From the NCBI RefSeq assembly GCF_004010195.1, contig NC_057754.1, positions 11,703,950 through 11,738,695 on the forward strand: a stretch of DNA of 34,746 nucleotides, read 5' to 3'. How positions within the stretch are numbered: the first letter of the stretch is position 1; every line of letters starts with the position of its first letter. The position numbers were made by a program, and so were the translations under genes. The DNA is from Chiloscyllium plagiosum. Lineage: Eukaryota. Below, piece after piece: positions 2,684 through 28,860 of the stretch. Under the pieces are notes generated by a model, which did not search any database, had not been told where the DNA came from, and saw nothing but the letters and a program-made list of their open reading frames with translations.

Positions 2684-2821
2684 ATGTGTTGCTGCAAAAG
2701 CACAGCAGGTGAAGGTGCATCCAAGGAGCAGGAAAATCCTTGTATGCTGCCTGACCTGCTGTGCTTTTCCAGCAACACACTCTCAACTATGATCTCCAGC
2801 ATCTGCAGACCTCACTGTCTC
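2684..2821. mobile_element. Foldback cassette made of Penelope-like terminal-repeat sequence (family 1)
   Basis: Inverted arms TGTGTTGCTGCAAAAGCACAGCAGGT and ACCTGCTGTGCTTTTCCAGCAACACA. Flanked by CTCAACATGTAGATA (2669-2683) and CTCAATACGTAGATA (2822-2836). Confidence 0.8.
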
Positions 2822-4032
2822 CTCAATACGTAGATAGGCCGACTCGGGGGAGTCCGTGTTGGATTTGGTGCGAGGCAACGAGCCAAACCAGGTGTCAGAT
2901 TGCTCGGTAGGAGAGCATTTCAGTGACAGTGACCACAACGGCCTCACCTTTACCATAGCCCATGCAGAAGGATAGGAACAGACAGTGTGAGGAGGTATTT
3001 AATTAGGGGAGGGGAAATTATATTGCTATTAGACAGGAGCTGTGGAATATAAATTGGGAACAATTGTTCTACTGGAAATGCACAACATAAATATGGAGGC
3101 TGTTTAAGGAGCACTTGTTGCAAATGTTGGATAACTTTGTCCCACTGTGACAGGCAAGGAAGGCAAGGTGAAGAAGCCTTGGATGACAAGAGTAGAGGAG
3201 CTTCTTGTCAAAAGGAAGAAGGAAGCTTACTTAAGGTTGAGGAAGCAAGGATCGAGCATGGCTTTAGAGGATTACAGGATAGCTCGGAATGAACTCAAAA
3301 ATAGACTGAGAGGAGATAGGATGGGGCATGAAAAAGCCTTGGTGGAAAAGATTAGGGAAAACCTAAAGGCGTTCTACACATATGTGAGGAATAAGTGAAT
3401 GATCAGAGAGAGGGTAGGGCCGATCAGGGATAATGGCAGGAACTTGTGCCTGGAGTCTGAAGGGGTAGAGGCTGTAAATGAGTTTTTTGCTTCAGTATTT
3501 ACAAGAGAAAGAGACCTTGTTCATAGCGAGAACACCATGGACCAGGTTAATAGGCTTGAACAGATTGATGCTATGGAAGTGGATGAGGTGGAAACTTTGT
3601 GAAGCATCAAGATCGATAAGTGCTCAGGGCTGGACCAGATATATCCAAGGTTACTATGGGAAACAAGGAATGAGATTGCTGCGCTTCTGGTGATGATCTT
3701 TGCATCCTCACTCTCCACGGGAGTAGTACTGGCTGATTGGAGGGAGACAAATGCTATTCCTCTGTTCAACAATGGGAATAGGGAAATCCCTGGGAGTTAC
3801 AGACCAGAAAGTCTTACGTCTGTGATAAGCAAGGTACTGGAAAGGATTCTGAGAGATGGTATTTATGCTATTTGGAAAAACATTGTTGTTTGATTAAAGA
3901 TAATCAGCATGGCTTTGAGAGGGGCAAGTCATACCTCACCAGCCTTATTGAGTTCTTTAAGGATATGATGAGACAAGTTGATGAAGGTTAAGGAGTGGAT
4001 GTGCTGTATATGGATTTCAGTAAGACTTATTT

Positions 4033-4351
4033 TTAGATTAGATTAGATTCCCTACAGTGTGGAAACAGGCCCTTCAGCCCAACCAGTCCACACCGACACT
4101 CTGAAGAGTAACCTACCCAGACCCATTTCTCTCTGACTAATGCACCTAACACTATGGGCAATTTAATATGGCAATTCACCTGACCTGCACATCTTTGGAC
4201 TGTGGGAGGAAACCAAAGAACTCGGAGCAAACCCACACAGACACGGGAGAATGTGCAAACTCCACACAGACGGTCGCCCGAGGCTGGAATCAAACCTGGG
4301 TCCCTGGCGCTGTGAGGCAGCAGTGTTAACCACTGAGCCACCGTGCCTCCC
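4033..4351 (-). mobile_element. HE1/V-SINE-like element
   Basis: Reverse complement of the SINE at 959: (TTAGA)n tail at left, A/B boxes at right. Confidence 0.92.
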
Positions 4352-4841
4352 TAAGGTTCTCCATGGTAGGCTCATTCAGAATGTTAGAATGTATGGAATA
4401 CAGGGAAATTTGGCTGTCTGGATACAGAATTGGCTGGCCGAAAGAAGACGGCCAGTGGTAATGAATGGGAAATATTCTGCATGGAGGTCGGTGACTAGTG
4501 GTGTCCTGCAGGGATCTGCTTTTTGTAGTTTTTATAAATAATTTGAATGAAGAAGTGGAAGGGTGGGTTAGTAAGTTTGGCCCCGATGACAAAGGTCGGT
4601 GGTGTTGTCGACAGTGTCGAGGGCTGTTGCAGCCTACAACATGGCATTAACAGGATGTGGAGCTGGGCTGAGAAGTGGCAGATGCGAGTTCAACTTGGAC
4701 AAATGTGAAGCGATTATTTTTGGAAGGTCGAATTTGAATGTTGAATACAGGGTTAAAGATAAGATTCTTGGCTGTGCAGAGGAAGAGTTGGATCTTGGGG
4801 TCCACGTACATAAATCCCTCAAAGTTGCCACCCAAGCTGAT

Positions 4842-5160
4842 AGGAGAAAGTGAAGACTGCAGATACAGGAGATTAGAGGATGGACAGGTAGGACAGTTTA
4901 AGAGGGCAGTTCTGAGTTGGAGGGTTGGATCTGGGATAAGGTGGGGGGTGGGAGATGAGGAAACTGGTGAAATTGACATTAATGCTGTGTGGTTGGAGGC
5001 TCCCAAGGCAGAAATGACACCTCCAGGCGTCGGGTGACGAGTGTTTGGTGGTGGAGGCGGCCCAGTACTTGCATGTCCTTGGCGGAGTGGGAAAGGGAGT
5101 TAAAGTGTTCGGCCACAGGGCGCTGGCGTTGTTTAGTGCGGGTGTCTTGGAGGTGTTTTC
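4842..5160 (-). mobile_element. Penelope-like element 3' fragment (C-terminal part of GIY-YIG endonuclease plus trailer)
   Basis: ORF 4979-5191(-) contains HLQDTRTKQRQRPVAEHFNSLSHS, homologous to the endonuclease region at 12930-13270. Terminal word AGGAGAAAGTGAAGACTGCAGAT at ~4843. Confidence 0.78.
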
Positions 5161-6133
5161 TGTCCCAGAACAGAACCTGGCCTAGCACCAACCCCTAAGG
5201 CACCTAGTCACAGGCCTCCAGTCTGACAAGCATCCTTTCACTGTTACCCTCTGCTTCCTACCATCAAGCCAATTGTGTATCCAATTTGCCAGCTCTCCTT
5301 GGATTCCATGCGGTTTAATCTTTCAGGGCAGCCTTATCAAAGACCTTCCTGAAATCCATACAGACTACAGCCACCACCCTATCCTCGTCAACCTTCTTGG
5401 TCGCTTCAAAGAACTCTTAACAAATTTGAGAGGCATGACATCCCATGCACAAAGCCATGCTGACTACTCCTAATCAACCCTGTCTTTCCGAATATATTTA
5501 TATCTTATCCCTCAGAATTTTCTCAAGTAACTTACCTACCACAGATGTTCGGCTTACTGGTCAATATTTCCTGGGTTTTTCTTTGCAGCCTTCCTTGAAT
5601 AAGGGCACAACATTCACTATGCTCCAGTCTTCTGGAACCTCACCAATGGCAAAAGATGATGGAAAAATATCAACTCGGGCCTCTGCAATTTCTTCACTAG
5701 GTTTTTACAGTGTTCTTGGATATGCCTGGTCAAGACCAGAAAATTTATCTACCTTCATACATCAACACTTCCTCTACTATGATATGGACTGTCCCCAAGA
5801 TATCACCGCCCGGGGTGGAACCCCGCACTGCCTGATTCTATCTCCTTCCCAAGATCCACAAGCCTAACTACCCCGGCTGACCTATTGTCTCAGCCTGCTT
5901 CTGCACCAACGAACTCATCTCCACCTCCCTCAATACTGTCCTATCCCCCTTAATCCAGGAACTCCTCCACATACGTTTGGGACACCACACACGCCCTCCA
6001 TCTCCTCCAAGATTTCCGTTTCCCCAGCCCCCAACTCCTCATCTTCACCATGGACATCCAATCCCTCTATACCTCCATCTGCCATGACCAGGGCCTCCAA
6101 GCCGACTGTTTCTTCCTCTCCCAACGTCCCCAC

Positions 6134-6813
6134 NNNNNNNNNNNNNNNNNNNNNNNNNNNNNNNNNNNNNNNNNNNNNNNNNNNNNNNNNNNNNNNNNNN
6201 NNNNNNNNNNNNNNNNNNNNNNNNNNNNNNNNNNNNNNNNNNNNNNNNNNNNNNNNNNNNNNNNNNNNNNNNNNNNNNNNNNNNNNNNNNNNNNNNNNNN
6301 NNNNNNNNNNNNNNNNNNNNNNNNNNNNNNNNNNNNNNNNNNNNNNNNNNNNNNNNNNNNNNNNNNNNNNNNNNNNNNNNNNNNNNNNNNNNNNNNNNNN
6401 NNNNNNNNNNNNNNNNNNNNNNNNNNNNNNNNNNNNNNNNNNNNNNNNNNNNNNNNNNNNNNNNNNNNNNNNNNNNNNNNNNNNNNNNNNNNNNNNNNNN
6501 NNNNNNNNNNNNNNNNNNNNNNNNNNNNNNNNNNNNNNNNNNNNNNNNNNNNNNNNNNNNNNNNNNNNNNNNNNNNNNNNNNNNNNNNNNNNNNNNNNNN
6601 NNNNNNNNNNNNNNNNNNNNNNNNNNNNNNNNNNNNNNNNNNNNNNNNNNNNNNNNNNNNNNNNNNNNNNNNNNNNNNNNNNNNNNNNNNNNNNNNNNNN
6701 NNNNNNNNNNNNNNNNNNNNNNNNNNNNNNNNNNNNNNNNNNNNNNNNNNNNNNNNNNNNNNNNNNNNNNNNNNNNNNNNNNNNNNNNNNNNNNNNNNNN
6801 NNNNNNNNNNNNN
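6134..6813. other. Assembly gap (N run)
   Basis: Run of n. Confidence 1.
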
Positions 6814-6969
6814 ACCTGTCAATCTTCCTTCCCACCTATCCGCTCCACCCTCCTCTCTGACCTGTCACCTTTACCCCTTCCTGCATCCACCTATTGCACT
6901 CGCAGCTACCTTCTCCCCAGCCCCACCCCCTCTCATTTATCTCTCCACCCCCGAGGCTTCCAGCCTCAT

Positions 6970-7001
6970 ACCTGATGAAGGGCTCCTGCCCGAAACATCG
7001 A
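6970..7001 (+). ncRNA. Minimal hammerhead ribozyme-like motif (slightly decayed)
   Basis: C-CTGATGA-A-GGGC-tcct-GCCC-GAAA-CA-TC-GA. Confidence 0.65.
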
Positions 7002-7881
7002 TTTTCCTGTTTCCTGACCTGCTGTGCATTTCCAGCACCACTCTAATCTTGACTCTAATCTCTAGCATCTGCTGTCCTTACTTTCACCCAAGATAACACC
7101 ACTAATTTTCCCAAGTTCCCAAGTCTTCTTGTCTTTCTCCATGGTAAACACAGAGGAGAAATATTTATTGAGGATCTCGCCCACCTTCACTTTGGTCCTT
7201 CAAGGGCCCTATTCTCTCTCTAGTTATTCTTTTTCCTTTAATATAGTTAACAAATCTTTTTGGATTCACCCTAATCTTCTGAGCCAAGGGTATCTGTGCT
7301 CCTTTTCACCCTCCTGATTTCCTTCTTCAACAACCTCCTGTATCTCCTATATACCTCCAGGGATTCTGTTGTTTCCAGCTGCCCGTACCTGAGCCTTACC
7401 TCCCTTTCTCTGGTCAAAGCCTGAATATCGCTTGTCATCCAGGGTTCCCTATTCCTGCCAACCTTGTCCTTCACCCTCATAGGAAAATATAGATCTTGAA
7501 TTCTAGCTATTTCACTTTTAAAGGCCTCCCACTTGCCGGAGGTCCCATTTGCCTGTCAATCCCTGCAAGCTCCTGTCCAATTCCATCAAAATTCACTTTG
7601 CCCCAATTTAGAACTTGAACCTGTAGACCAGTTTTGTCCCATTCTCTAACTATTTTAAAATTAAAAATAACTGTGGTCACTGATCGCAAAGTGTTCCCCC
7701 ACTGTCACTTGTTCTGCCCTATTTCCCAAGAGTAGGTCAAGTTTTGCCCCTGCTCGATTGGGACCCTCTATATACTGCTCCAGGAAATTTTCCGGAATGC
7801 AATTAACAAATTCCACCCCATCTAACCCTATGGCGGTTCCAGTCTATCTCAGGAAAATTAAAATCCCCTACTACGACAATC

Positions 7882-8095
7882 ATAGAACATAGAAAAGTAC
7901 AGCACAGAACACGCCCTTTGGCCCACGCTGTTGTGCCGAGGTTTAATCCTAACGTAAAATATAGTAACTTAAGCTACGCACCCCTCAACTCACTGCTATC
8001 CATGTGCAAGTCCAGCAGTCGTTTAAATGTTCCCAATGACACTGCTTCCACCACAACAGCTGGCAACACATTCCATGCCTTCACAACTCTCTGCG
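7882..8095 (-). mobile_element. Short CR1-type LINE 3' end
   Basis: CATAGAACATAGAA tail repeat followed by reverse-strand 3' UTR and ORF2-end sequence. Confidence 0.75.
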
Positions 8096-8598
8096 CTCCC
8101 ACAAGTCTCCCCAACCTCCCTGCATATTTGTTCCTCTGATTTCCGTTGACTATTTGGGAAGTCTATGGTACAACCCCAATAAGGTCACCAACCCCTTCTT
8201 ATTTCTTAGTTCCACTCACAAAGCCTCAATTGAATGATCCTTCAATTATTTCATCTCTGATTACTGCTGTGATACTCGCCTTAATAAAAAATGCAACTCC
8301 CCCTCCCCTCCTTCCAACACTGCTGTCCCGCCTAAAGCACCTGTTATCTGGCATATTAAGCTGCCAGTCCTGTCCTTTCCTTAGCCATGTTTCTGTAAAT
8401 GGATAACATATCCCAGTTCCATGTACCTATCCACACCCTGAGTTCATTGGCCTTATTTGGCAGCCCTTTTGCATTGAAATAAGTGCAATTTAATCCAACA
8501 GGCATTCCTCTCTTCCTGTCATATTCCAACTAGACTGTCCCTTCAACTTACTATTTCTGATGACTGTTGTTTTGCTGTCTTTATCACATAATATGTAG

Positions 8599-8645
8599 TT
8601 CTTAGGATATTCAGCTACATAATATGTAGCTGAATATCCTAAGAA
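8599..8645. repeat. Perfect palindrome with 23-bp arms and a 1-nt centre
   Basis: TTCTTAGGATATTCAGCTACATA-A-TATGTAGCTGAATATCCTAAGAA. Confidence 0.95.
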
Positions 8646-8678
8646 AAGAAACATAATATATAGGAAATAAAATAAATT

Positions 8679-8960
8679 ATAGAATCCCTATATTGTGGGA
8701 ACAGACCATTCAGCCCAACAAGTCCATACTGACCCTCTGAAGAGGATCTCACCCAGCTATCCCCATCCCCTAACCCTGTAGACCTGCACCTAGCCTGCAT
8801 ATCTTTGGATTGTGGGAGGAAACTAGAACACCTCGCAGAAACCCGCACTGACCCAGGGAGAATGTGCAAACTCCACGCAGTCAGTCACCCCAGGGTAGAA
8901 TTGAACCTGGGTCCCTGGTGCTGTGAGGCAGCAGTGATAACCACTGAGCCACTGTGCCAT
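8679..8960 (-). mobile_element. HE1/V-SINE-like element (older copy)
   Basis: Same core and A/B boxes on the reverse strand, more diverged than the other copies. Confidence 0.88.
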
Positions 8961-9573: not shown

Positions 9574-10590
9574 ATAGTCAAAGATGTAAACTGCACAGAA
9601 ACAGATCCTTCGGGCCAATCACTCCATGTTGACCATAATCCCAAATTAAGCGAGTCCAACCTGCCTTGGCCCATATCCTTCCAAGCATTTCTTATGCATG
9701 TACTCCTCTAAATGCCTTTTAAATGTTGGAACTGTACCCGCATCCGGCACTTCTTCTGGAGGTTCATATCACAGACAAATCACTCTTGACTGAAAAAAAA
9801 TTGTCCCTATATCTTTTTTAAATCTTTCTCCTCTCACCTTAAAGATATGCTCCCTTTTCTTGTAATCCCCCACCCCGAGGGAAAAGACATGTGCCATTCA
9901 CCTTACATGTACACCTTTATAAATCTCTGTAAGATCACCTCTCAACCTGGTTGAGAAAAAGGTTCTAGACTCTCCTTATGATTCAAATGCTTCATTCCTG
10001 GCAATACCCTGGTAAATCTCTTCTGAACCCTCTCCAGCTTAATTATATCTTCTTTAAAGCAGCGAGACCAGCACTGGAGACAGTACTACAGAAGAACATC
10101 CTGTACAATCTCAACATCCTTTACTCAAAGATCTGAGCAATGAAGGCAAGCATATAAAATGCCTTCTTAACCACCCTATCTGTATGTGACAGCTCTCATG
10201 ACCAGTCATCTCGAAGCTAGCTTGCTGTGACTCCATGACTGCTGTCTGACCTGCTGTGATCTCCAGTGTTTATTTTTAGGATCATCTATATGTGATGCAA
10301 GCTTCAAGAGATTATGTACCTGAACCCCTCGTTCTCCCTGTTTCGCAACACTACCCAAGGCCCTATTATAAATTGTATAAATCTTGCTATTGTTTGCTTT
10401 ATCAAAATGCAATATCTCTCATTTATTCAAGTTAAACTTCACTCTTCAGCCCATCGACCCAATTGAACAAAATCTCTTTGTAATCTTAGATAACCTTCTT
10501 CACTGTCCACTGTACCATCAATCTTGCTGTCACCTGCAAACTTACTAATCATGCTTTCTATATTTTCATCTAAGCTATTTATATAAATGA
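9574..10590 (-). mobile_element. CR1-clade LINE 3' portion, decayed
   Basis: AAACTTACTAATCATG (SKFA motif on the reverse strand), MHFDKANNSKIYT, and a 3' UTR near 9575-9680. Confidence 0.8.
10190..10283 (+). mobile_element. Short degenerate Penelope-like terminal-repeat insertion
   Basis: Contains TGCTGTCTGACCTGCTGTG. Flanked by ATCTGTATGTGA (10178-10189) and ATCTATATGTGA (10284-10295). Confidence 0.6.
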
Positions 10591-12444: not shown

Positions 12445-14326
12445 CTTCGGAAGCCAGGGAAGTGATTGCTGGGCTCCTTCTTGTGATGTTTGTGTCATCG
12501 ATAGTCACAGGTGAGGGGCCAGGAGACTGTAGGTTGGCTGAAGTGGTTCCACAATTTAAGAAAGATGGTAAGGAAAAGCCAGTGAACTCTCGGCTGGTGA
12601 GCCTGACATCGGTGGTGGGCAGACTGTTGGAGGGAATCCTGACAGACAGGATTTACTTGCATTTAGAAAGGCAAGGACTGATTTGGGTTAGTCAACGTGG
12701 TTTTGTGCATGGAAAATCATGTCTCACGAACTTGACTGAATTTTTTTAAGTAGTTTCGCGGAGCGCTGACCAGTGGACATATCTATATGGTCTAGGAGAA
12801 ACTGAGGACTGCAGATGTGAAGATCAGAGTCAAATGTGTGGCGCTGGAAAAAAACAGGTCAGGCAGCATCCGAGGAGCGGGTGAGTCGATGTTTCGAGCA
12901 GAACCCTTCATCAGGAGTGTGGGTACCTTCCCTTGCCATTACAAGAGGTATAAAACCTGCACCTACACCTACCACTCCTCACCTCCATTCAAGGCCCCAT
13001 TTTCCTGCACATCTGAACACCTCACCTACTGTGTCTGTTGGTTTTTATTTGGTTTCCTCTACATCAGGGAGACAAGAAGCCAATTTGTGGAATTCACAGA
13101 ACATCTCCAGAACACATGCACAAAACAACCCCACCATCATGTGGCTGACCACCTCAACTCCCCCTCCCACTCTACTAAGGACAGACAAGTTGCAGGCGCC
13201 TTCACCACCAAATCCTAGCCACCAAAACCTGGAGAAAGAACACTTCATCTTCTGCCTTGGGATCCTCCAACCACATGGAATCAATGTCAATTTCACCAGT
13301 TTCATCTCCTCTCCCCCAGCTTATCCCAGGTCCAGCCCCCACCAACTCAGCATCATCCTCTTGAACTGTCCTACCCGTCCATCTTCCTTCCCACCCATCT
13401 ACTCCACTCTATCACCATCACACCCCACCTTCATCTACCTATCTTCTCCCCAGCTCCACTCCCCTCCCATTCATCACACACCACCCCCTATAGTCCTGGT
13501 GAAGTGCTTATGCCCAAATTGTTAAGTTTCCTGCTCCTCGGATGCTGTCTGACCTGCTGTGATCTATATGGACTTCAGTAAGATGTTCGACAATGTTCCT
13601 CATGGTAGACTGGTTAGCAAGGTTAGATCTCATGGAATACAGGGAGAACTAGCCATTTGGATACAGAGCTGGCTTGAAGGTAGAAGACAGAGAGTGGTGG
13701 TGGAGGGTTGCGTTTCAGAATGTAAGCCTGTGACCAGTGGTGTGCCACAAAGATTGGTGCTGGATCCATTACTTTTTGCCATTTATATAAACAATTTGAA
13801 TGTGAACGTAGGAGGAATGGTTAGTAAGTTTGCAGATGACACTAAAATTGGAGGTGTAGTGGACAGCGAATGAAGGTACCTCAGCATACAACAGGAGCTT
13901 GATCAGATGGGCCAATGGGCTGAGGAGTGGCAGATGGAGTTTAATTTAGATAAATATGATGTGTGCCATTTTGGAAAGGCAAATCAGGGCAGGACATTTA
14001 CACTTAATGGTAAGGTCCTGGGGAGTCTTGCTGAACAAAGAGACCTTAGAGTTCAGGTTCATAGTCCTTGAAAGTGGAGTCACAAGTAAATAGGATAGTG
14101 AAGAAGGCATTAGGTCTGCTTTCTTTCATTGGACAGAGTATTGAATATAGGAGTTTACAGGTTATGTTGCGGTGTACAGGACATTGGGTAGGCCACTTTT
14201 AGAATATTGTGTGCAATTTTGGTCTCCCTCCTACTGGAAGGAAATTGTGAAACATGATAGAGTTCAGAAAAGATTCACAAGGAGGTTGCCAGGGTTGGAG
14301 GGTTTGAGCTATAGGGAGAGGCTGAA
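12445..14326 (+). mobile_element. CR1-clade LINE RT fragment interrupted by a Penelope-like element
   Basis: SQRGFVHGKSCLTNLTEFF, then IYMDFSKMFDNVPH and VSKFADDTKIGGVVDSE after the insertion. Confidence 0.92.
12791..13561 (+). mobile_element. Truncated Penelope-like element: inverted terminal repeat, GIY-YIG endonuclease remnant, direct terminal repeat
   Basis: FSCTSEHLTYCVC...FLYIRETR...EHL...HVADHLNSPSHS. Hammerhead motif on the minus strand at 12886-12916 and a decayed one on the plus strand near 13494. Perfect 10-bp duplication ATCTATATGG at 12781-12790 and 13562-13571. Confidence 0.88.
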
Positions 14327-17798: not shown

Positions 17799-17799
17799 A

Positions 17800-18181: not shown

Positions 18182-18928
18182 CATAGACTGAAATAAAATG
18201 GAAACAGACCCTTCGGTTCAACTTATCCATGCTGATCAGATATTCTAACCTAATCTAGTCCCATTTGCCAGCATTTGATTGCTTCATTCCTGATGAAGGG
18301 CTTTTGCCTGAAACGTCGATCTTCCTGCTCCTCGGATACTCCCTGACCTGCTGTGCTTTTCCAGCACCACTCTAGTCTAGACCCCTACATCTCTCTAAAG
18401 CCTTCCTATTCATATACCTATCCATATGCCTTTTAAATGCTGCAATTGTACCAGCTTCCACTACTTTTTCTGGCAGCTCATTTCATACATGTATAACCCT
18501 CAGCATGAAAGGATTGCCCCTTAGGTCCCTTTTATATCTTTCTCCTTTGACCCTAAACCTATGTCCTCTAGTTCTACACTCACCCCAGGGAAAAGACCTT
18601 CTCTAATTATCCTATCCATGCCCCTCATGATTCTATAAACCTCTATGAGGTCACTCCTCAGACTCCGGCATTCCAGGGAAAACAGCCCCAGCTTATTCAG
18701 CCTCTCCCAATAGCTCAAATCCTCCAAATCTGGCAACATCCTTGTAAATATTTTCTGAACCATTTCAAGTTCCACGACATCCTTCCGATAGGAAGGAGAC
18801 CAGAATTACAAGCAATATTCCAAAAGTGGCCTAATCAACAACCTGTAAAGCTGCAATATGACCTCCCAACTCCAATACTCTGACCAATAAAGGAAAGCAT
18901 ACCAAATGCCTTCTTCACTATCTTATCT
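18182..18928 (-). mobile_element. CR1 3' portion
   Basis: LEMVQKIFTRMLPDLEDLSYWERLNKLGLFSLE, plus 3' UTR. Confidence 0.88.
18280..18381 (+). mobile_element. Solo Penelope-like terminal repeat (family 1) with a hammerhead motif at 18288-18319
   Basis: TC-CTGATGA-A-GGGC-tttt-GCCT-GAAA-CG-TC-GA followed by CTGACCTGCTGTGCTTTTCCAGCACCAC. Confidence 0.8.
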
Positions 18929-19777
18929 TCAGTTTACAGAAACAATATGGATGTTCTTTCCATTGGATTAGAATTTATTTGATCATCCAGACAGCAGAGA
19001 CAGAGATCCCTACACTATGGAGATCCTGTGGAAATATCAGGACAATGACAGGGATACAGTTACCCACCTGAGCTGACCACCCAATGGTGCAGTCACACCA
19101 GGGTCAGACAATTTCTCTGCTCCACGTGCAGGAAGAATTCAGTCAGACATTTAGGTGCTGAGAGCCCTGTTAAGTTTACAGGGAGTTACAGGAGTTGGAT
19201 TCTGTGGGATTGCTGCTTTTTATCCCACCCACCTTCATCTTCCCTTCATATTGGCCTTTTCCTGCAGTAAGTGTACAAACCAGCAGAGCCGCACATGCAG
19301 ATTTTGGCTCAGAATGGTTGGGGGGGGTGGAAAGAGTGTGGGCTACGCATGGTCACGCCCACTCACGGTCACATCACGACATTGGCGGACACCCACCAAA
19401 AACAAAGACTAACGGCCGTTAAACGGGGCCTGTTTCAGGAGGAGGCCCGAGGACTCCGCTGCACCAGAACACTCAGGTTTGGGGATTGCGACCTCAACTC
19501 CACAATTATGAATTATACTTTCCAGAATGTTTCTCCGACAGCTGCCTACTTTAACCTTTGCCTACTTTAACCTTTACCTACCACCCATGGAATGTGATAA
19601 ACTTCCAACCGTCACAGACATGTTCGATATCCCAATCAGCTGTGCGCATGCTCCACTCTGCCACCCGCCTGATTGACGGCGCAGAGCCAATAGGAAGCAA
19701 GAGGCGGGATAGGAGCTGCCGGCCATCCATTCAGAGTGAGCGAGGGACTCACCCTAACCAATCAACGATTATGGGGC

Positions 19778-19914
19778 TCTGGATTAGTTCTGCTGGAAGA
19801 GCACAGCAGTTCAGGCAGCATCCAAGGATTTATTCCTGATGAAGGGCTTTTGCCCGAAACGTCGATTTCGCTGCTCCTTGGATGCTGCCTGAACTGCTAC
19901 GCTCTTCCAGCACT
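19778..19914. mobile_element. Foldback Penelope-derived cassette enclosing a perfect hammerhead motif
   Basis: Arms TGCTGGAAGAGCACAGCAGTTCAGGCAGCATCCAAGGA and TCCTTGGATGCTGCCTGAACTGCTACGCTCTTCCAGCA. 17-bp duplication ATCAACGATTATGGGGC (19761-19777) and ATCAATGATTATGGGGC (19915-19931). Confidence 0.88.
19834..19865 (+). ncRNA. Minimal (short stem III) hammerhead ribozyme motif, intact core
   Basis: TC-CTGATGA-A-GGGC-tttt-GCCC-GAAA-CG-TC-GA; predicted cleavage after GUC. Confidence 0.78.
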
Positions 19915-20059
19915 ATCAATGATTATGGGGCGGTCTAGCGCTTTAACCTATCGGAGAGAGTGAGGGGCGGGATTAGTCCTACAACTAATCAGTGAAAGAG
20001 GAGGCGGGTCTGGAGCCAGAACTTGGTCCTGGACTGAAAGGCGAAAGTGGGTCCTGAAG

Positions 20060-20150
20060 GTTAGAGTGGTGCTGGAAAAGCACAGCAGGTATGGCATCAT
20101 CCGAGGAGGAGGAAAATCGACGTTTCGGGCAAAAGCCCTTCATCAGGAAT
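20060..20150 (-). mobile_element. Solo Penelope-like terminal repeat with an intact hammerhead motif (20117-20148, minus strand)
   Basis: TCGACGTTTCGGGCAAAAGCCCTTCATCAGGA is the exact reverse complement of 19834-19865. Confidence 0.82.
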
Positions 20151-20309
20151 GAGGCGGGACTGGGAGGGCATTGTTCTCACAATGTTTCTGCAGCACATTC
20201 AATGGAAGCATTTTCAGATAGTCAAATCCAAGCAGATCTCACAGCAAAGTCGAATAAAGACACTCCCCGTTCACGAACTCCTCAATATCATCGGCCTTTC
20301 ATCGTGCAA

Positions 20310-21300
20310 TGTAAAAGAATAATGCACAGAGGGGTACAGGCCCTTCCGCTTCCCCTAAACCTGCAACTACATTATTTAACCTTCCATACTGAAACTGTCT
20401 GCACTTACAGGATCCAAAGCTCACTGCTGCCTTTCTTTTCATGTATTCGTCCAGGTGTTCCTTGAATGCCTCCGTTGTGTCTGCTTCCGCCGCTTCCGCC
20501 GCTTCCTCTGTCAACACATTCCAGGCATTCACCACCTTTTGTGTGAAAAAACCTGCCTCACGTATATCTTTTAAACATCCTCTCTATTCCTGTACATTGA
20601 ACCTCTGTCCCCTGGTAATTGACCCCTCCACCCTGGGAAAAAGCCTCATACCTTCCACTCTATCCATGCCATTCACAATCTTATAAACTTTTATCAGGTC
20701 ACCCCTCAATCTCCTGTGTTGTAGTGAAAGCAAACCCAGTCCACCCAACCGTCATTCATAGCTAAAATACCCCATATCAGGCAATATCCTAGTAAACCCT
20801 TTTCCAAAGAATCCACATCTTTATGGTAGTGTATGCAATATTCAAAGGGTGGCCTAACTAAAGTTCTATAAAGCTGCTGCATAACTTGCCAATCTTTATA
20901 CTCAATGCCCCTTCCAGTGAAGTTAAAAATCACACAACATCAAGTTATAGTCCAACGGGTTTATTTGGAAGTACAAGCTTTCTGAGTGCTGCCCCTTTGT
21001 CAGGTAGTTGATGTAGGATCAGCGCTCTGAAAGCTTGTACTTCCAAATAAACCTGTTGGATTATAGCCTGGTGTTGGGTGATTTTTAATTTTGTCAACCA
21101 GCAACTCTACATCATGCCTTCCAATGAAAGCAAGCATGCCATTGGCCATTTCTACTAGCTTATGTACGTGCATTGCCACTTTTAGTGATCTGTGGACTTG
21201 CACACTCAGATCCCTGTGCTGATCAATACATATAAAGGTTCTGCCATTGACTGAACAATGTCCACCTGTAGTTGACCTTCCAAAGTGCATCATCTCACAT
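20310..21300 (-). mobile_element. CR1 3' portion interrupted at 20922-21116
   Basis: QLYRTLVRPPFEYC, VNAWNVL and EMMHFGRS on the minus strand. Confidence 0.85.
20922..21116. mobile_element. Foldback cassette, Penelope-like family 2
   Basis: Arms GTTAAAAATCACACAACATCAAGTTATAGTCCAACGGGTTTATTTGGAAGTACAAGCTTTC and its near reverse complement. Duplication CCTTCCAGTGAA (20910-20921) and CCTTCCAATGAA (21117-21128). Confidence 0.82.
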
Positions 21301-21959: not shown

Positions 21960-21964
21960 CACGA

Positions 21965-23035
21965 AGACATAAGGAGTTTACGTACCAATATTGGTAGATA
22001 GATTCAGTGAATATGCAAAATATCTTGCAGATGGACTAAAATGTTCACCTTGACTGGAAGGATAAATAAGAGCAAAGCATTACTTAAATGGAGAATGACT
22101 ACAGAATTTGGAGGTGGAGAGGGCTTTAAAGCATGTCACAGAGTTTGCATGTAGGAACAGCATATAATCAAGAAATATAATGGTTTGTTATCCTTTTTAT
22201 GACAGGAATTGAATAGAAATGTAAGGATGTTCTGAAATAAAAACAGAAATTGTGGAAAAAGCTCAGCAGGTCTAGAAGCATCTGTGCAGAGAAATCAGAA
22301 TTAATGTTTCAGGTCAAGTGTTTTGTGTCCTCAGAACTGATGGTTGCTAGGAAAATCTCAGTTTATTTCCAGAAGATAGGGTGGGGAGAGAGGGTATTGA
22401 GTAAATGATAGATGGGAATGGAGCCCAAACAGACAGAAGAACAGTTGGACAGACAAATGAATGGAAAATGACCTGGCTAGAAGGATGAAGAGCTATTAAT
22501 GGGGACTGGTACACATTAACAATAAGCTGTGTCTGATAGCAGAATACGTGATAACAAGGTCTGATGTCTGGGGATTGGGGTAAGGACATGGGAGAGCTCA
22601 AGCCCAAAAGTTATTGAACTCATTATTGAGTGTGGAGGGCTGCAGGGTCCCCAAGCTGAAAATAAGGTACTGTTCTTCCAGCTTGTGCTGAGCTTTGTTA
22701 AAGCACTGCAGCAAGACGGAGACAGAGATGTTGGCCAGGGAACAGGGTGGTGTGTTGACGTGGCAGGCAAGTGGAAGCCTTACCATGCCTTTTTTGCACA
22801 AAATATACTGAGAGCGGTTGAGCTTTTTCAGCAATTTCTGTTTTTGTTTCTGATTTAAAGCATCCACAGTTCTTTTGGCTTTTAATAAGGATGTTCTGCT
22901 TCATTTATGCAGAGAATTGGTAAATCCACATTTCAAATACTGTATGCAATTTTCATCATTATCTTTCAGGAAACATATAAATTTATTGGAGTGGTTCAGA
23001 GGCTGTTTATTAGATTGAAACCTGGAATAGGTGAC
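21965..23035 (+). mobile_element. Old CR1 RT fragment split by the insertion at 22235-22885
   Basis: Degenerate similarity to other CR1 copies (TTACTTAAATGGAGA, AATACTGTATGCAATTTT). Confidence 0.6.
22235..22885 (-). mobile_element. Truncated Penelope-like element with inverted termini (family 4)
   Basis: KLEEQYLIFSLGTLQPSTLNNEF (PLE C-terminus). Inverted ends AAAAACAGAAATTG..AAAAAGCTCA and TGAGCTTTTT..CAATTTCTGTTTTT. Perfect 13-bp duplication TAAGGATGTTCTG at 22222-22234 and 22886-22898. Decayed hammerhead at 22299-22338(-). Confidence 0.85.
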
Positions 23036-24963
23036 TGACAGTGAACCCGAGAAGCATGTTCAGGGAAGGACATTTGAAATAAAAACAAGGAGATAATCTG
23101 AGGAAAAAATATACCAAACTTAGATAAAGGAGGGAACATATGGGATATAGTAATTTATGCTTCTAAACTAAGTATATTCACACCATCCAGAATAATGTGT
23201 TCTGAATGTCTATCATTGATTTACAATATCTTTGCTCAAACCATATTCCTCTTCTTGAGCAGTCAGTAAGGATCAAGAATGACTTTCTTCCACTTAAGTG
23301 TTGTGGGTCCTGAGGTTATTCAGTAGTTCAAGGCTAGATCCACAAAAGCACTACCACATGTGGGGCAGATGATATTTGCTGAAGGGAATGGGAGTGATGC
23401 TCAGTCACATGCTTTTTCCATTGTTAATATTCATTTTCCATCTTGGCCTAAAGATGTTCAAAATTGTTGACTTCTTCGCAGATGCATCTTCACCAAAGTG
23501 GATGGTTTGGGTCAACAATTACCCCCCCCCAGTGAATGGGAATATTGGATTTTTCGTTTGAGAAAATGTGGAGACAAACTTGAATGCATTTCTCTGCCAA
23601 CCTGGAAATATTTTTCCTTGAGGATGCTTAGTCAGATTAAAGAGTATGTATTGGAAGCCCTCTATCAGGCATGTGGATGATGTGAACTGCCCAATGCAGA
23701 TGATTGATCATACCCAGCCCCTGAATTCAATGTTCTTTGGTCTGATCTGCACCTGGTATAACTTTTTACATGGGTCAGGTATGGCATGAAACACGAAATC
23801 AATAATCCACAAGGGCACCTGATAACGATGAATAAAACTAACTTCTCTCAGGGAGATAGAACATTGTGAACATGAGCTATTGCATTTAAAGTCTAGAAAG
23901 GAATCGTAACAAATCACTGCTTCTCAAAATTTCCCAGTATGACCCATTTTAATGCCTCAGAATCTGTCTCACCCAAAAATTACAGGTTTTGGGGTGACAG
24001 AGAATTGTTGATCAATGGGAGAAGGGGGAGGCAGGTGGGGTGTTAATAACAGATTATTCATGAATTTTAACCTCAATTATTAATGCAATAACATTCAGTT
24101 TATTCAGATTTTAAAACTGGCAATTTTTAAAATCTAACAGGATCCTGATTCTTTATATAATAGGGATGATTATTAATTGTAATAATTTTGATATTTCATA
24201 AATCAGAGGTGATTATTGATGAAATATTTTCCAAATTATTGAAGGAAGAAGCAACTGATTATAAATGAAAGCAACTGTATAAATAATTAAATCTTGATTC
24301 ATCATAAACCCACACACAGAATCTTAAAAGCATAGGTGGCAGCCATTTGGCCCATTATGCTGGCACTGTCTCTGAAAATACTGACAATTTGTTCCTTTTC
24401 CTTAAATGGTCTATCCCTTAATCTGAGACAAAGTCCCTGGTTCTAATCTGAACATCCTGGGGAGATATCAATCTACATCCATTCTGTCAGAACATTGTAA
24501 GTTTCAATGAGATCAAATATTATGATCCCAGTTGATGGAAATACTGCACAAGTCAAATCTCTGAATGAAATCTGACTTAATCTGAAACTCATGTTTCATT
24601 TTTGCAATTAAATTACACATTTGGTTAATTACTGAACATATTCACATGAGGCTACCAACATTCATTTTAATAATATAACACATTTATTGCATAAAATAAG
24701 GCTCTATACAAAGGTGACAATTTTGAAAGACCTTAACACATTTAAACAATTTCCCCAGTAAAATACTCAATCTCAGTGAAGTATCACTCTTGTCTTTTTT
24801 TCATCTGTTAATGGGATATGGTTGTTGCTGGCTCAACACTAACTGCTTGGCTGGTAGTGGTGGTGAGGTGCCTTCCTGAATGTCTGCCCTCATTAGGGTC
24901 TTCAGTCACACACATTGCTATTCTATCACTTTAAAACTTGATTCAAAGTTCCACATTATGATG

Positions 24964-25242
24964 TTAAAAATCACACAACATCAGGTTATAGTCCAACAGG
25001 TTTAATTGGAAGCACACTAGCTTTCGGAGCATCATCAATTTTTCAATGTATAATTTCAGTTACATCACACTGTAAATTTTTGCTATAAATTCTGTGTGTT
25101 AGGATTGAGCCCTCCACTACCACCTGATGAAGGAGCGATGCTCCGAAAGCTAGTATGCTTCCAATTAAACCTGTTGGACTATAACCTGGTGTTGCGTGAT
25201 TGTTAACTTTGTACACCCCAGTCCAACATCGGCATCTCCAAA
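24964..25242 (+). mobile_element. Foldback cassette, Penelope-like family 2, with a hammerhead motif at 25121-25155
   Basis: Inverted arms of ~70 bp. CAC-CTGATGA-A-GGAGC-gat-GCTCC-GAAA-GC-TA-GT. Duplication CCACATTATGATG (24951-24963) and CCACATTATTATG (25243-25255). Confidence 0.85.
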
Positions 25243-25618
25243 CCACATTATTATGGTCACTATTTAACAAAGGCTTCTTTGCAGCAAAGTTAGTAATTAG
25301 CCTTTATCTTTACAGAATGCTAAATCTAAAACAAGCTGATTCCAACTTGGTCCTTCAATGTTCTACTTCAGAAGTATTCAGTGCAAACTGAATTTCATCC
25401 TCCACAGCATCCATGCTGTTTAGGTTCATCCAGTTTATGTGGGAATTGAAGTCACCCGTTATTATTGTATGGCTCTTATAATATTTACATATCATTTTGT
25501 GAATTAATTCAAAGGAAGTATTTGGGATATGAAGTAGATTCATCAGACTGTGATTTTAATGCATACACACTGTATTATCACCCAAAGTTGGGCTGGATGT
25601 TTTAACATTTTTAGGACA

Positions 25619-26186
25619 TGTTATTATGTTGTCACTTTAAAAAAAAAAGAGTTATTTTGTCATTGGTTTTATCAAGAAAGGTGGTAAAGGCAGAGGTGTT
25701 GAAGAATCTAGTATAATAACGGGAAGGGTCTTTCCAGTTCTCCCAATTCAGGTTTTTTCACTGTATTTTCACTGTAGCAGTCATAAGATGTGCGATTCCA
25801 CGGGAGTTGCAAGCTTCAGTAAAGGATTCCACTGATTTTCTGTTGAAGTTCCCTCCTGCCTGTAAGAATCTGTGTTTGAATTTTGCTTTTTGCCAAGGAA
25901 TGGGTTTATGGGACGTTACAGTATTGGAACAGTTATTTAGAAGTAGTTACTGTATTGAGTTGGCTAAGTTTTCCAACAGTTAAAATTATTCCAAATTCTG
26001 ATTTCTTTTGTTCATGTTTCAACTGTAGCGTTTAAATAAATTGTGTTTTGCTTAAAGCCCAAGTAGTTTGACCAGTTGCATCAGACCTGGAACATCCACT
26101 TCACATCTGCCTTTAAAATAAGAAAAAGTTAGGGTCTCAAGTACATTCTTAAAATATTTTGAGGTGGTCTGGCCTGGTCCATAACA
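25619..26186. mobile_element. Possible solo LTR
   Basis: Bounded by TGTTA...TAACA, with AATAAA near 26035; no clear target-site duplication. Confidence 0.3.
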
Positions 26187-26224
26187 GTGTGATGTGATTA
26201 ACAGGAAATTACAGCTCATGCAGT

Positions 26225-27814
26225 CACTTGTGGACTTGCTGCTGTCTAAGCAGATGTACTATTAGGAAGGATTTCTCAGTGAATCCTTTCCAAATTTAGT
26301 GAAGAATGACCTCTCTCCAATGTGAATTTGCTGGTGTACACTGATTTGAGACAATCATCTGAACCCAGTCCCGCAGAGAGTGCACTTGAGTGGTCTCTCA
26401 TTGGTGTGAACACAGTTCAATCCCCCAGAACTTTTAAAATACTTGCCTCATTGTGGACATTTAAAATGCCTCTCATCAGAGTGAACACATTGATGGCGTA
26501 TCAGATCTCAGGATCTTGTATAACATTTTCCACACACTGTGCATTTGAAAGGTCTCTCCCAAATGTGAACTCGCTGGTGAGTCAGGAGGTGGATTTTCTG
26601 AGTGAAACCCTTCCCACATACAGAGCAGGTGAATGGTCTCTCTCCGGTATGAGTGCGCTGGTGTGCAGTGAGACGAGATGACCGCTTGAACCCAATCCCA
26701 CACTGTGAGCACCTAAATGGTCTGTTGTCAGTGTGAACATGTTCATGTAACTTCAGTTCTCCAGAGCTTTTATAACACTTCACGCAGTCGGGACATTTGA
26801 AAGGTCTCACCTGAGTGTGAATTCGCTGGTGTGCCTTGAGGTGGGCTGATTCACAAAATCCCTTCCCACACTGAGTGCAGGTGAATGGCCTCTCCCCAGA
26901 GTGAACTCGTTGGTGTGTCAAAAGGGTGGAAAACCGAAAGAATATTTGTCCACATTCAGAGCAGATGAATGACCTCTCCCCAGTGTGAAGACGCTGGTGT
27001 AGAGTGAGTTGAGATGATCTCTTGAAGCCGTTTCCACAGTGAGAGCACCTGAACGGTCTCTCCTCAGTGTGAACACGGTGATGGATGATCAGCTCCCTGG
27101 AACCTTTAAAGCACTTTCCACACTCTGAACATTTAAAGGGTCTCTCCTCAGTGTGAACCACGTTGATGGGATTGCAGATAGTGAGAACTTTTAAAACACT
27201 TCCTGCAGTTTGGGCATTTAAAAGGTCTCTCCTCACTGTGAACCTGCTGGTGTGCCTTGAGGTGATAGGACTGAGTGAATCCACTTCCACATTCAGAGCC
27301 GGTGAATGGCCTCTCCCCAGTGTGAACGTGTTGGTGAACAGTGAGTTGGGATGACCACTTGAAGCCAGCCCTCCCAGTCGGAGCATGTGAACCGTCTCTC
27401 CTCAGTGTGAATACGCTGATGGGACATCAGCTCACTGGAACTTTTAAAGCACTTCCCACAGTCTGGACATTTAAAAGGTCTCTCCTTAGTGTGAACTCGC
27501 TGGTGTGTCAGCAAGGTCAGCAATTGAGTGAATCCTCTTTCACACAGGGAGCAGATGAATGGCCTCTCCCCTATGTGAATACGTTGATGAATTTTCAGTG
27601 CAGAATGATGGCTGAATCCCTTTTCACAATCCCCACATTTCCATGGTTTCTCCACAACGTGACTGCATTTATGGTTCTTGAGGCCAATTGATTGGCTGAA
27701 GCCTTTTTTGCATGCAGAACACAAGTATTTGTTCTCCCCATTGTGAATGGTGCTTTCTTCTTTTATGTTTAAAATGTGGTGATATTCTGGTTGTGATAAA
27801 CTGGGTGACTCCAT
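26225..27814 (-). pseudogene. C2H2 zinc-finger array gene without a visible KRAB/SCAN domain (~17-18 finger units), disrupted
   Basis: CxxC-x12-HxxxH fingers with [11 protein letters not shown] linkers across three frames. ATG at 27814. +1 frameshifts at ~27370-27376 and ~27158. In-frame TGA at 26508-26510, 26448-26450 and 26355-26357. Polypyrimidine tract plus CAG acceptor at 27876-27877, just upstream of the ATG. Confidence 0.88.
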
Positions 27815-28064
27815 TAGATCATGGTGTGATGTTTGCTTTCAGTTTGCAGCCTTCAAATCCCCCACTTCTCATACTCTGTGGATTAATTTGAAACAGAAGG
27901 CAGGAGTAAGAGAGAAGGCACAAAAACATAAAGGCAGGTTGTAAAAGCATACTGAGTGAATCTGGGGCAATTTGCTGGACAGGCACTTGGGAACAGTTAC
28001 CACAAAAGCTTCTCAAATGTCATAGAAGCTCAAAATTAATATCGATCAGAGAAGAAACCTGCTA

Positions 28065-28200
28065 CCTGGTGTGGGCCCACACAATTAGGTGAAGGGGTAA
28101 ATGTAGGGGAATGGGTCTGGGTGGGTTATGCTTCGGCAGGTCAGTGTGGACTTGTTGGGCCGAAGGGCCTGTTTCCACACTGTAATCTAATCTAAAAAAA
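28065..28200 (+). mobile_element. 5'-truncated V-SINE-like 3' end
   Basis: GTGTGGACTTGTTGGGCCGAAGGGCCTGTTTCCACACTGTAATCTAATCT. Confidence 0.88.
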
Positions 28201-28628
28201 AGACCGGCATGGAGCAGAGTGAGAGAGACATAGGGAGGATGTAGGAGAGTCAGGAAGCAAAGGATTTTATACATCTACAATTTGCCCTGAAATGTGTTCG
28301 GATGGTCCAAATCCTCAATCTCCACCAGCTCAAAGGATCAGGGGAGCAGATTTATGTGAAAATCTTCACCACCAAGTTACCTTCCAAGACACACGATCCT
28401 GACATGTTTGACATCCACTGCTGGAGGAACAGAGACTTCTTTTGACTGAACATTAGGAGGATGAAAGTCAATGCCTTCCATCCCTGTTACAAAGTCCATT
28501 CCCCAGCCACTGACTGAATCTCTTTCTCTGGCAACTGCATAATCCTCAAATAGACTGTTCAGAAGCTTGCTGCCATATTTCACCCCAAACTGAGATTCCA
28601 ACATATGCCCACATCATCAGTAAAACCA

Positions 28629-28860
28629 GGAGAAAGTGAAGACTGAAGATGCTAGAGATCAGAGTCAAAGAGTGTGGTGCTGGAAAAACAGAGCCAGTCA
28701 GGCAGTATCTGAGGAGCAGGAGAGTCTATGTTTCGAGCATTAGCTCTTCCTCAGGAAGGAGCCATCCTTAGTGAGATCAAAACACTCCTGATAAACAGTT
28801 TATGCTTGAAACGAAGATTCTCCTGCTCCTTGGCTTTTCCAGCACCCCACGTTTTGACTC
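28629..28860. mobile_element. Inverted pair of family-1 Penelope-like terminal repeats
   Basis: GGAGAAAGTGAAGACTGAAGATGCT start. Hammerhead motif at 28725-28756(-): TC-CTGAGGA-A-GAGC-taat-GCTC-GAAA-CA-TA-GA. Decayed plus-strand copy near 28786-28850. Confidence 0.75.

Follow-up and report, generated by a model that had tools for sequence, protein, structure and literature searches.

Cassettes built from inverted Penelope termini recur in a 34,746-nt stretch of Chiloscyllium plagiosum DNA (contig NC_057754.1, positions 11,703,950 to 11,738,695; hereafter the window). Do they constitute a hairpin element that multiplies as such, or does each record the insertion of an ordinary Penelope-like element (PLE)? 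A sequence-only reading had described them as MITE-like fold-backs and had left both origins open. The analysis below indicates that the hairpin inserts are back-to-back stubs of PLE ends, most likely formed afresh at each insertion in conformity with the published PLE insertion pattern, and not a new hairpin element.

Structure of the inverted cassettes

All seven cassettes of the sequence-only reading were recovered. Local alignment found inverted arms in each of them, with identities, in coordinate order, of 33/37, 25/27, 36/38, 63/72, 36/43, 67/71 and 25/29, and BLAST within the window gave self-inverted matches with E values from 1e-43 to 1.2e-5. Two cassettes tested by folding had z-scores of -10.9 and -15.2, and none of 200 shuffles was equally stable. 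Every cassette consists of two 5'-truncated PLE ends placed head to head (7/7), and the arms represent the ends of three PLE families, designated A, B and C. An extension of 28-60 nt, the tail, is found on exactly one arm in six of the seven cassettes and on both arms in none, and one arm overhangs its partner by 13-60 nt in all seven.

The family-A fold-back at 2684-2821 (unstranded, as are the other fold-backs) joins a tail-less arm (2684-2738, sense on the minus strand) to a tailed arm (2737-2821, sense on the plus strand) with a junction overlap of 2 nt. Both arms start downstream of the ribozyme core, and the cassette is without one. The short arm of the family-A insertion at 12791-13561 (plus strand) is inverted and tailed (12791-12922, sense on the minus strand) and has a predicted minimal hammerhead at 12891-12914; it is followed by a long tail-less arm (12921-13561) comprising a broken GIY-YIG C-terminal region (12916-13324), the 3' UTR and a decayed hammerhead. 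In the family-A fold-back at 19778-19914 neither arm (19778-19828, sense on the minus strand; 19829-19914, sense on the plus strand) bears a full tail; the arms, 36/38 alike, are the least decayed, and the predicted minimal hammerhead core (19836-19860) lies in the loop. The last family-A fold-back, at 28629-28860, consists of a tailed arm (28629-28761, sense on the minus strand), a spacer of about 20 nt and a tail-less arm (28783-28860) that has lost 14 nt internally.

Family B contributes two fold-backs. The first, at 20922-21116, pairs a tail-less arm (20922 to about 21009, sense on the minus strand) with a tailed arm (21009-21116), and its ribozyme cores are decayed and within the duplex. 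In the second, at 24964-25242, a tail-less arm (24964-25033, sense on the minus strand) faces a tailed arm (25034-25242) containing a predicted minimal hammerhead (25124-25149), an ATTAAA signal (25164-25169) and, at 25208-25242, a tail of 35 nt; the centre is occupied by one-arm sequence that stays unpaired over about 100 nt. The family-C insertion at 22235-22885 (minus strand) has a long tail-less arm (22235 to about 22800, sense on the minus strand) and, inverted to it, a short arm (about 22800-22885) whose tail measures 36 nt. The earlier claim that endonuclease sequence persists in two cassettes was borne out by tblastn, which placed GIY-YIG sequence at 12916-13206 (plus strand) in 12791-13561 and at 22777-22607 (minus strand), the GIY-YIG C-terminus of the long arm, in 22235-22885.

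Several other PLE copies are present in the window. A longer family-A-type copy at 5760-7088 (plus strand) contains a broken reverse-transcriptase fragment (5818-6130), a 3' UTR, a hammerhead (6972-6996) and a tail end at 7088; the two sides of an assembly gap are presumed to be one copy. Non-inverted family-A ends occur at 18277-18381 (plus strand, hammerhead 18290-18314), where no duplication was found at the ends, and at 20037-20165 (minus strand, hammerhead 20122-20146). The family-A end at 4843-5161 (minus strand) retains the endonuclease C-terminus and tail, with the ribozyme region deleted, and that at 34375-34746 (minus strand, tail end 34375) includes a 116-bp partial tandem (34402-34518 / 34518-34634), the only direct one, in which the ribozyme has a 2-nt deletion in both units. 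A broken fragment at 33699-34376 (minus strand) carries a PLE linker and GIY-YIG sequence and has a weak DNA match to family C.

Identity of the elements

The endonuclease piece had no match in a word-indexed search of proteins; an exhaustive search detected relatives, 61 of them for the 98-aa piece at E<=0.001. The long relatives carry RVT_1 and GIY-YIG domains and a CxxxxCxxC linker, and match five places in the window. Proteins of 813 and 816 aa with RVT_1 and GIY-YIG matched the piece at 12922-13215, and the same proteins matched the reverse-transcriptase fragment at 5818-6130. The longer of the endonuclease pieces kept in two cassettes matched Neptune-type proteins. None of the four short fragments from the window had a Pfam hit, and no intact ORF is present in the window. 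The linker motif, found in the relatives and at 33699-34376, is decayed at 12922. Judged from sequence, the elements are probably endonuclease-bearing PLEs of Neptune type; the clade was assigned from the CxxxxCxxC linker, a motif given for both Neptune and Nematis in Craig 2021 (PMC8557442). The Penelope origin of the cassettes is supported.

Target-site duplications

Duplications of 15, 10, 17, 12, 13 and 13 bp had been proposed for six cassettes, and direct repeats of these lengths do adjoin the ends of six of the seven: 2669-2683 / 2822-2836 (13/15 identical), 12781-12790 / 13562-13571 (10/10), 19761-19777 / 19915-19931 (16/17), 20910-20921 / 21117-21128 (11/12), 22222-22234 / 22886-22898 (13/13) and 24951-24963 / 25243-25255 (12/13). 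In a null set of 300 random position pairs, real repeats included, 0.7-2% scored equally well. No duplication was found at the ends of 28629-28860, where the best repeat (4/5) was matched by 92% of the null pairs.

LINE paralogs provided a further test. A paralog at 1985-2145 (minus strand) lacks the interruption and contains the target of the 2684 cassette once. The one-copy form of the target fitted better in 5 of 5 paralogs tried for the 20922 cassette, in 5 of 6 for 22235 and in 1 of 4 for 12791; a single target copy is thus seen for three of the four cassettes that have paralogs (2684, 20922 and 22235). The paralog search found none spanning the targets of 19778, 24964 or 28629, and no orthologous empty site appeared among the best 15 of 637 joints in the runs on 24964-25242. 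The latter cassette is likely common to a second organism (organism B), two contigs of which cross its flank borders by 17 and 26 letters, below the standard of 31.

Retrotransposition with variable duplication length, as proposed earlier, agrees with the 10-17 bp repeats. True MITEs, that is, non-autonomous DNA transposons moved by a transposase acting on terminal inverted repeats, would also be short, palindromic, high-copy and bounded by duplications, but here the duplications vary in length and one cassette has none, the ends are asymmetric in all seven, the junctions are not uniform, the arms continue into endonuclease coding sequence, and family-A ends occur uninverted too. A transposase origin is therefore scarcely credible, and the label "MITE-like" is not retained.

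Ribozyme motifs and arm decay

A flexible pattern-plus-stem scan of the window predicted nine minimal hammerheads, seven of them in family-A or family-B ends; it was used in place of an earlier fixed-spacing pattern, which gave 7 matches against 1.8 expected. Rfam returned no match to the predicted hammerheads and only three sub-threshold microRNA matches. Many arms begin 5-13 nt upstream of the ribozyme core. Within the cassettes the core is absent, decayed or paired in six of seven and free in the loop in only one. In old arms identity has fallen to 74-85%, and nothing suggests that pairing was maintained.

The sister arms of the family-B cassettes have seven diagnostic columns in common as against the other cassette, with one cross-pattern column, and the family-B and 19778 sister arms have subfamily-specific sites in common. 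In three decayed family-A cassettes the sister arms are no closer mutually than to other copies; those of 12791-13561, for example, are 45/61 alike and no closer than either is to other copies. These decayed arms, and the spacer and missing duplication of 28629-28860, could point to two separate events, a second PLE end having inserted in reverse beside an earlier one or a later rearrangement having occurred. Against this, one duplication encloses both arms in six of seven cassettes, all seven are head to head, and the family-B and 19778 arms share their subfamily-specific sites, so that two events are very unlikely.

Inversion junctions

The inversion junctions differ among all four family-A and both family-B cassettes. 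Sequencing runs X1, X11 and X15 were aligned to a 1891-bp stretch around 24964-25242. Contig ends piled up at 24963 (904, 906 and 94 contigs, respectively) and at 25242 (619, 598 and 81), with unrelated flanks beyond (agreement 0.37-0.44). Family-B ends are very abundant (57,900 contigs in X1); their outer ends occupy two fixed sites separated by 35 nt, and their inner ends vary. The tail-less ends of family A are ragged and lie between +65 and about +93 relative to the core. When additional copies were sought by pattern, viral contigs gave 1 and 0 matches and metagenome contigs 18; these 19 loci were rejected as chance, each matching the window over at most 26 nt.

The runs listed 637 joints and no dominant one, the best occurring in 14 contigs per DNA run. 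The joints span the whole 1891-bp stretch and may at such stringency be artefacts, and the best 15 were displayed, so the breakpoint spectrum is visible in part. Among the joints displayed, the one linking 25015 to 25119 recurs in two species, with 14 contigs each, and X1 has 6 contigs that join 25030 to 25121; some junctions are therefore shared. The intervening letters differ in the three displayed rows of the 25015-25119 joint, with a varying left-arm stop and only the right-arm start in common, which fits a stopping hot spot.

This recurrent joint and the very high copy number are what might be expected if a few fold-back masters were transcribed, mobilised in trans by PLE protein and copied as hairpins. 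Non-autonomous PLE derivatives are described in parts of two sources (PMC8557442; bioRxiv 10.64898/2026.07.22.740005), and a passage of PMC3846280 presents pLTRs as able to mobilise other sequence in trans. The known non-autonomous forms, however, are head-to-tail tandems; here cassettes of one family have no common junction, the recurrent joint has the variable letters of a stopping hot spot, the core is free in one cassette only, and the old arms do not visibly keep their pairing. Such amplifying hairpins are unlikely, and a hairpin-plus-ribozyme class, the second origin offered by the earlier reading, is unsupported as the main explanation by the differing junctions and asymmetric ends. Fixed outer ends combined with 637 scattered joints favour formation at each insertion, its first alternative. 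Each cassette is, with good probability, one dead insertion of an endonuclease-bearing, probably Neptune-type PLE, whose inversion was made during insertion and left a hairpin as by-product.

Transcripts and editing

Among family-B RNA reads, which come from other copies, 733 of 2,907 show poly(A) at 25181 or 25184, 12-15 nt past the ATTAAA of the arm, and reads span the predicted ribozyme cleavage site. The idea that 24964-25242 belongs to the 3' UTR of the zinc-finger gene next to it found no support: in a sample of about 2% of a single-cell library, no RNA reads fell on the unique flanks of this cassette, and depth was zero over 24400-24911 and 25296-25743. The suggestion that the arms might undergo A-to-I editing was likewise not upheld. 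A>G plus T>C changes made up 91/279 places in RNA run X21 against 62/222 and 71/253 in DNA runs (p 0.28 and 0.26), counts that test no single locus because the reads derive from mixed paralogs. Run X15 (RNA by guess, from another organism) gave 62/157, p 0.02 against X1 in an uncontrolled comparison.

It is conceivable, if rather doubtful, that family-B ends supply a working poly(A) site at many loci and that a subset of fold-backs, whose right arms in two species begin at a common point some 10 nt upstream of the ribozyme core, is a small self-amplifying hairpin subfamily or was templated by a short RNA whose 5' end is fixed. If so, the second arm of a family-B fold-back would carry a poly(A) signal whichever strand is read, and pairing with the first arm could switch it off or on. 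Polyadenylation within family-B ends, if confirmed per locus, would be a dispersed source of transcript ends; a literature search, judged by its listings, showed nothing evident on polyadenylation in Penelope-like terminal repeats.

Proposed mechanism

Formation at each insertion could proceed as follows. The element protein would cut both target strands with a stagger of 10-17 nt, and a separate cDNA would be primed by each cut strand. Of two internal start sites, one cDNA would use the outer and its partner the inner, which would explain why only one arm has a tail. Both cDNAs would usually stop early, often just beyond the ribozyme, and their free ends would be joined with a 0-3 nt overlap or short filler. 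The resulting hairpins would be by-products that later decay. The published accounts describe an adjacent inverted 5'-truncated copy with a tail of 30-40 bp that is often present on a single end (Craig 2021, PMC8557442), inverted pLTRs with 8-10 bp duplications in a rotifer (Arkhipova 2013, PMC3846280), and PLE cleavage and extension of both strands, with two reverse-transcription start sites bounding the tail (Frangieh 2024, PMC11167929).

A fixed second start site accounts less well for the ragged tail-less ends of family A than for the family-B ends. Within the per-insertion explanation, two-primer synthesis is somewhat preferred, and one cDNA folding back on itself is only a little less probable; sequence alone cannot separate them. 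The many short copies could test the origin of PLE inversions, as genome-wide counts of tail/no-tail pairs, inner ends and overlaps would separate two-primer from fold-back priming.

Comparison with known systems

In L1 twin priming, both target strands act as primers while the element inserts, and the resulting inversion affects part of one copy without duplicating it. Its junction overlaps are short, as here; it differs in that both arms of the present cassettes carry the same element end. Literature searches found no paper on Neptune or Penelope retrotransposition in sharks and nothing related on palindromic non-autonomous Penelope elements in sharks.

The predicted ribozymes resemble the minimal type-I hammerheads of metazoan PLE repeats (Cervera and De la Pena 2014, PMC4209133) in their CUGAUGA core, one unpaired base before helix II, G-C closing pair and palindromic positions around GAAA. 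That study reports motif pairs 100-700 bp apart on opposite strands in PLE terminal repeats; in the fold-backs here most copies of the motif are damaged or lost, or lie in a duplex with the opposite arm. Non-LTR retrozymes (Li, Clavereau and Pollet 2026, bioRxiv 10.64898/2026.07.22.740005), reported from a single chondrichthyan among the genomes sampled, are likewise non-coding, hammerhead-bearing repeats derived from PLE ends, but they form head-to-tail tandems with a hammerhead per unit, whereas the present cassettes are single head-to-head units with target duplications.

The sections of PMC11167929 on the Poseidon element of Anolis (PAc) in vitro describe a tail bounded by two start sites, comparable to the family-B ends 35 nt apart, and an upstream ribozyme, as here, where RNA reads span the predicted cleavage site. 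The present elements differ in looking Neptune-type and in the ragged tail-less ends of family A, and those sections offer no model of inverted insertions.

The closest likeness is to endonuclease-bearing PLE insertions, for which portions of Craig 2021 (PMC8557442), Arkhipova 2013 (PMC3846280) and Schostak 2008 (PMC2377424) describe head-to-head inverted ends with a tail at one end, short variable duplications, a C-terminal GIY-YIG domain and inverted repeats varying in size. The duplications found here (10-17 bp) are slightly longer than the rotifer cases of 8-10 bp given in part of PMC3846280. Here, in contrast to the published insertions, truncation often leaves 50-200 nt of each copy, which makes the whole insert a small hairpin, and copy number is very high. 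Such stubs could be mistaken for MITEs or microRNA hairpins in repeat annotation, and they offer a clear and very abundant natural example of the published insertion pattern.

Fold-back cassettes and their target sites

The window consists of repeat-rich animal DNA with assembly gaps. The sequence-only reading had described cassettes with inverted arms, each arm being one end of a Penelope-like element (PLE), and such arms were present in all seven (named by their starts 2684, 12791, 19778, 20922, 22235, 24964 and 28629). Local alignment of arm against arm gave identities of 33/37, 25/27, 36/38, 63/72, 36/43, 67/71 and 25/29 in window order, and self-inverted BLAST matches had E values from 1e-43 to 1.2e-5. 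Folding compared with shuffles for two of the cassettes gave z values of -10.9 and -15.2. Target duplications of 15, 10, 17, 12, 13 and 13 bp had also been claimed, and direct repeats of these lengths do adjoin the ends of six of the seven cassettes, with identities of 13/15, 10/10, 16/17, 11/12, 13/13 and 12/13; 0.7-2% of 300 random position pairs reach an equal score. The same check found no duplication at the ends of 28629-28860.

Several cassettes break LINE fragments of which the window also contains uninterrupted paralogs (the surrounding repeats we take to be CR1-type LINE and SINE). For 2684-2821, the single paralog found aligned without gaps when one repeat copy was removed and with a 15-nt gap when both were kept. 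Among hand-picked paralogs, the one-copy target form scored higher in 5/5 cases for 20922, 5/6 for 22235 and 1/4 for 12791. No paralog spanning the target site was found in the window for 19778, 24964 or 28629.

Around cassette 2684, LINE fragments at 45-2064 and 2847-4684 (about 73-79% alike) lie in opposite orientation and thus form a long imperfect inverted repeat. Cassette 19778 lies inside a stretch (19300-20030) that by eye is promoter-like, with presumed CCAAT boxes, GC boxes and GCGCATGC motif; its duplication takes in part of the CCAAT-box region. At 8586-8663, 13-bp direct repeats (12/13) enclose a palindrome that is close to perfect (22 pairs, 8599-8645), together with 5 further nt. 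The same 13-mer recurs at the palindrome centre (8617-8629), and the window holds no second copy of the palindrome. On the minus strand, 26300-27900 carries a C2H2 zinc-finger array broken over three frames (27838-27293, 27426-27148 and 27401-26508), which is either a pseudogene or the product of assembly errors. Direct duplications with 99-100% identity, 214-382 / 392-560 (169 bp) and 34402-34518 / 34518-34634 (117 bp), are either recent local duplications or assembly artefacts.

Element identity

A 98-aa frame at 12922-13215 had 61 relatives in a protein search (E up to 0.001). RVT_1 and GIY-YIG domains with a CxxxxCxxC linker occur in three long relatives (813, 816 and 609 aa). The two named relatives among six examined belong to a skate and a shark, which makes a cartilaginous-fish host probable. 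In an excerpt of Craig 2021 (PMC8557442), the Zn-finger-like linker motif is assigned to Neptune and Nematis. Five of these relatives, used as tblastn queries against the window, matched 12916-13206 (+) and 22777-22607 (-), which bears out the endonuclease sequence claimed within 12791-13561 and 22235-22885. Further matches were 5161-5021 (-), 34376-33699 (-) and a reverse transcriptase fragment at 5818-6130.

By DNA similarity, the seven cassettes fall into three families. Family A comprises 2684, 12791, 19778 and 28629, together with uninverted ends near 4843, 6965-7088, 18280, 20040 and 34375; family B comprises 20922 and 24964, and family C 22235. A pattern-plus-stem scan placed seven of nine hammerhead matches in family-A and B ends, and these hammerheads fit the minimal motif in the consulted part of Cervera and De la Pena 2014 (PMC4209133). 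A fourth family, of what are probably PLE ends, occurs at 10190-10283 and 29330-29460. The 10190 copy is uninverted and has a 12-bp duplication, its target being present once in LINE paralogs; simple insertions thus exist beside the fold-backs.

Ends of the arms

In all seven cassettes, the element ends face outward and the truncated 5' sides join centrally. A tail (a 28-60-nt extension) is found on exactly one arm in six of the seven and on both in none; 19778 has the full tail on neither arm. The tailed ends of family A (three cassette arms plus three or four uninverted copies) reach +122 to +126, counted from the hammerhead ribozyme core, and their tail-less sister arms about +65, +77, +81 and +93. 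In family B, the two tail-less arms both reach +83, with the tailed arm of 24964 ending 35 nt beyond.

The inner ends lie at ~+39/+28 in 2684, -8/~-570 in 12791, +39/-7 in 19778 and -7/-5 in 28629 (family A), and at ~-7 to -13/+1 in 20922 and +13/-90 in 24964 (family B). Since these positions differ, no junction is common to two cassettes of one family. Junction overlaps judged by eye are 0-3 nt, 28629 having a spacer of ~20 nt instead. In family B, sister arms share the same letter at 7 columns that separate the two cassettes, with 1 cross-pattern column, and the sister arms of 19778 are alike at 35/37; three older family-A pairs (35/41, 45/61 and 37/48) match no better than the best matches to other copies.

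In predicted folds, the core is free in the loop in 19778 only and is paired with the opposite arm in 24964 and 28629. Cassette 2684 lacks it, 20922 and 22235 have it in decayed form, and the inverted arm of 12791 contains it with a decayed copy opposite. In one case, the tail-less arm of 2684-2821 (2731-2738) begins at the predicted cleavage site, directly after the position that GUC occupies in intact copies.

Family-B copies in sequencing runs

Four runs were compared with 24400-26290 at 88% likeness: X1 (organism A, DNA; 57,900 contigs matched), X11 (organism B; 49,242 contigs), X15 (organism C, RNA by guess; 8,236 contigs) and X21 (organism A, RNA; 2,907 reads, ~2% of the run read). Depth was concentrated on cassette 24964-25242. 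Loose ends with unrelated flanks piled up at 24963 (904, 906 and 94 contigs in X1, X11 and X15) and at 25242 (619, 598 and 81), which indicates two fixed outer ends in family B. A second element of ~0.5 kb (~25620-26190), possibly a solo LTR, is moderately repeated and occurs in each of the four runs.

Over the whole stretch, the four runs gave 637 joints (links between two separated positions), some of which may be artefacts at this likeness; of the 15 listed, 14 lie inside the cassette. The best-supported DNA joint among these 15 links 25015 to 25119 (14 contigs in each of two species), and the letters between its sides differ across the three rows listed. It suggests a common right-arm start with differing left-arm stops. 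A small amplified family-B hairpin subfamily may also exist; the pattern of the 15 listed joints, a partial view, favours formation at insertion.

On the unique flanks of the cassette, the ~2% of X21 read contained no reads. Reads from other family-B copies had a strong one-strand bias (depth 1036 versus 89 at 25104-25167), consistent with element-sense RNA, and their sequence variants indicate several source loci. Poly(A) follows 25181 in 345 X21 reads and 25184 in 388; these sites lie 12 and 15 nt downstream of the ATTAAA at 25164-25169, a hexamer found on both strands of both family-B cassettes. The DNA loose ends had no A-run at 25181/25184 among the matches listed. Because the poly(A) RNAs stop short of both fixed ends, we infer that they could not template insertion from that repeat. 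The proposal that the hairpins might be ADAR substrates gained no support, A>G and T>C places not being enriched in X21 relative to the DNA runs (p 0.28 and 0.26).

Formation of the inversion

Taken together, these results confirm the fold-backs, and we consider it quite probable that each inversion was made afresh at insertion, as junctions differ within families and the listed joints point the same way. A PLE protein studied in Frangieh 2024 (PMC11167929) cuts each of the two target strands and extends it, and reverse transcription starts at two internal sites bounding the tail. In what we regard as the simplest reading, the two target strands would be cut with a 10-17 nt stagger, each would give rise to one cDNA from a different start site, both cDNAs would stop early, and their free ends would be joined. 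Self-priming (fold-back synthesis), proposed in the part of Arkhipova 2013 (PMC3846280) seen here, is an explanation of the same class and accounts at least as well for family-A ends, whose ragged tail-less stops suit it. Sequence alone cannot separate it from two-strand priming.

Five of 12 family-A and B arms start within ~13 nt upstream of the core, as do 6 of 14 family-B joints among the matches listed; this latter count may be too high if alignments break where subfamilies differ. These clustered starts could mean that the polymerase stops once past the ribozyme, or that a transcript begins or is spliced at this point. In two long family-A copies, a pyrimidine run followed by AG lies just upstream of the core; the intron of Drosophila Penelope terminates at helix I, on its 5' side (PMC4209133).

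Comparison with known systems

The label "MITE-like" did not hold, as the cassettes lack fixed-length duplications, symmetric terminal inverted repeats and uniform copies. In literature searches, no listed paper dealt specifically with such stubs in sharks. The fold-back pattern itself is already published. As far as the excerpts go, the cassettes match PLE insertions in which an inverted 5'-truncated copy adjoins the 5' end and one end often bears a 30-40 bp tail (PMC8557442), inverted pLTRs with 8-10 bp duplications (PMC3846280), Drosophila inverted repeats of varying size (PMC2377424), and paired hammerheads on opposite strands 100-700 bp apart (PMC4209133). Non-LTR retrozymes, on the other hand, form head-to-tail tandems in the portion consulted (bioRxiv 10.64898/2026.07.22.740005), whereas the cassettes are arranged head to head.
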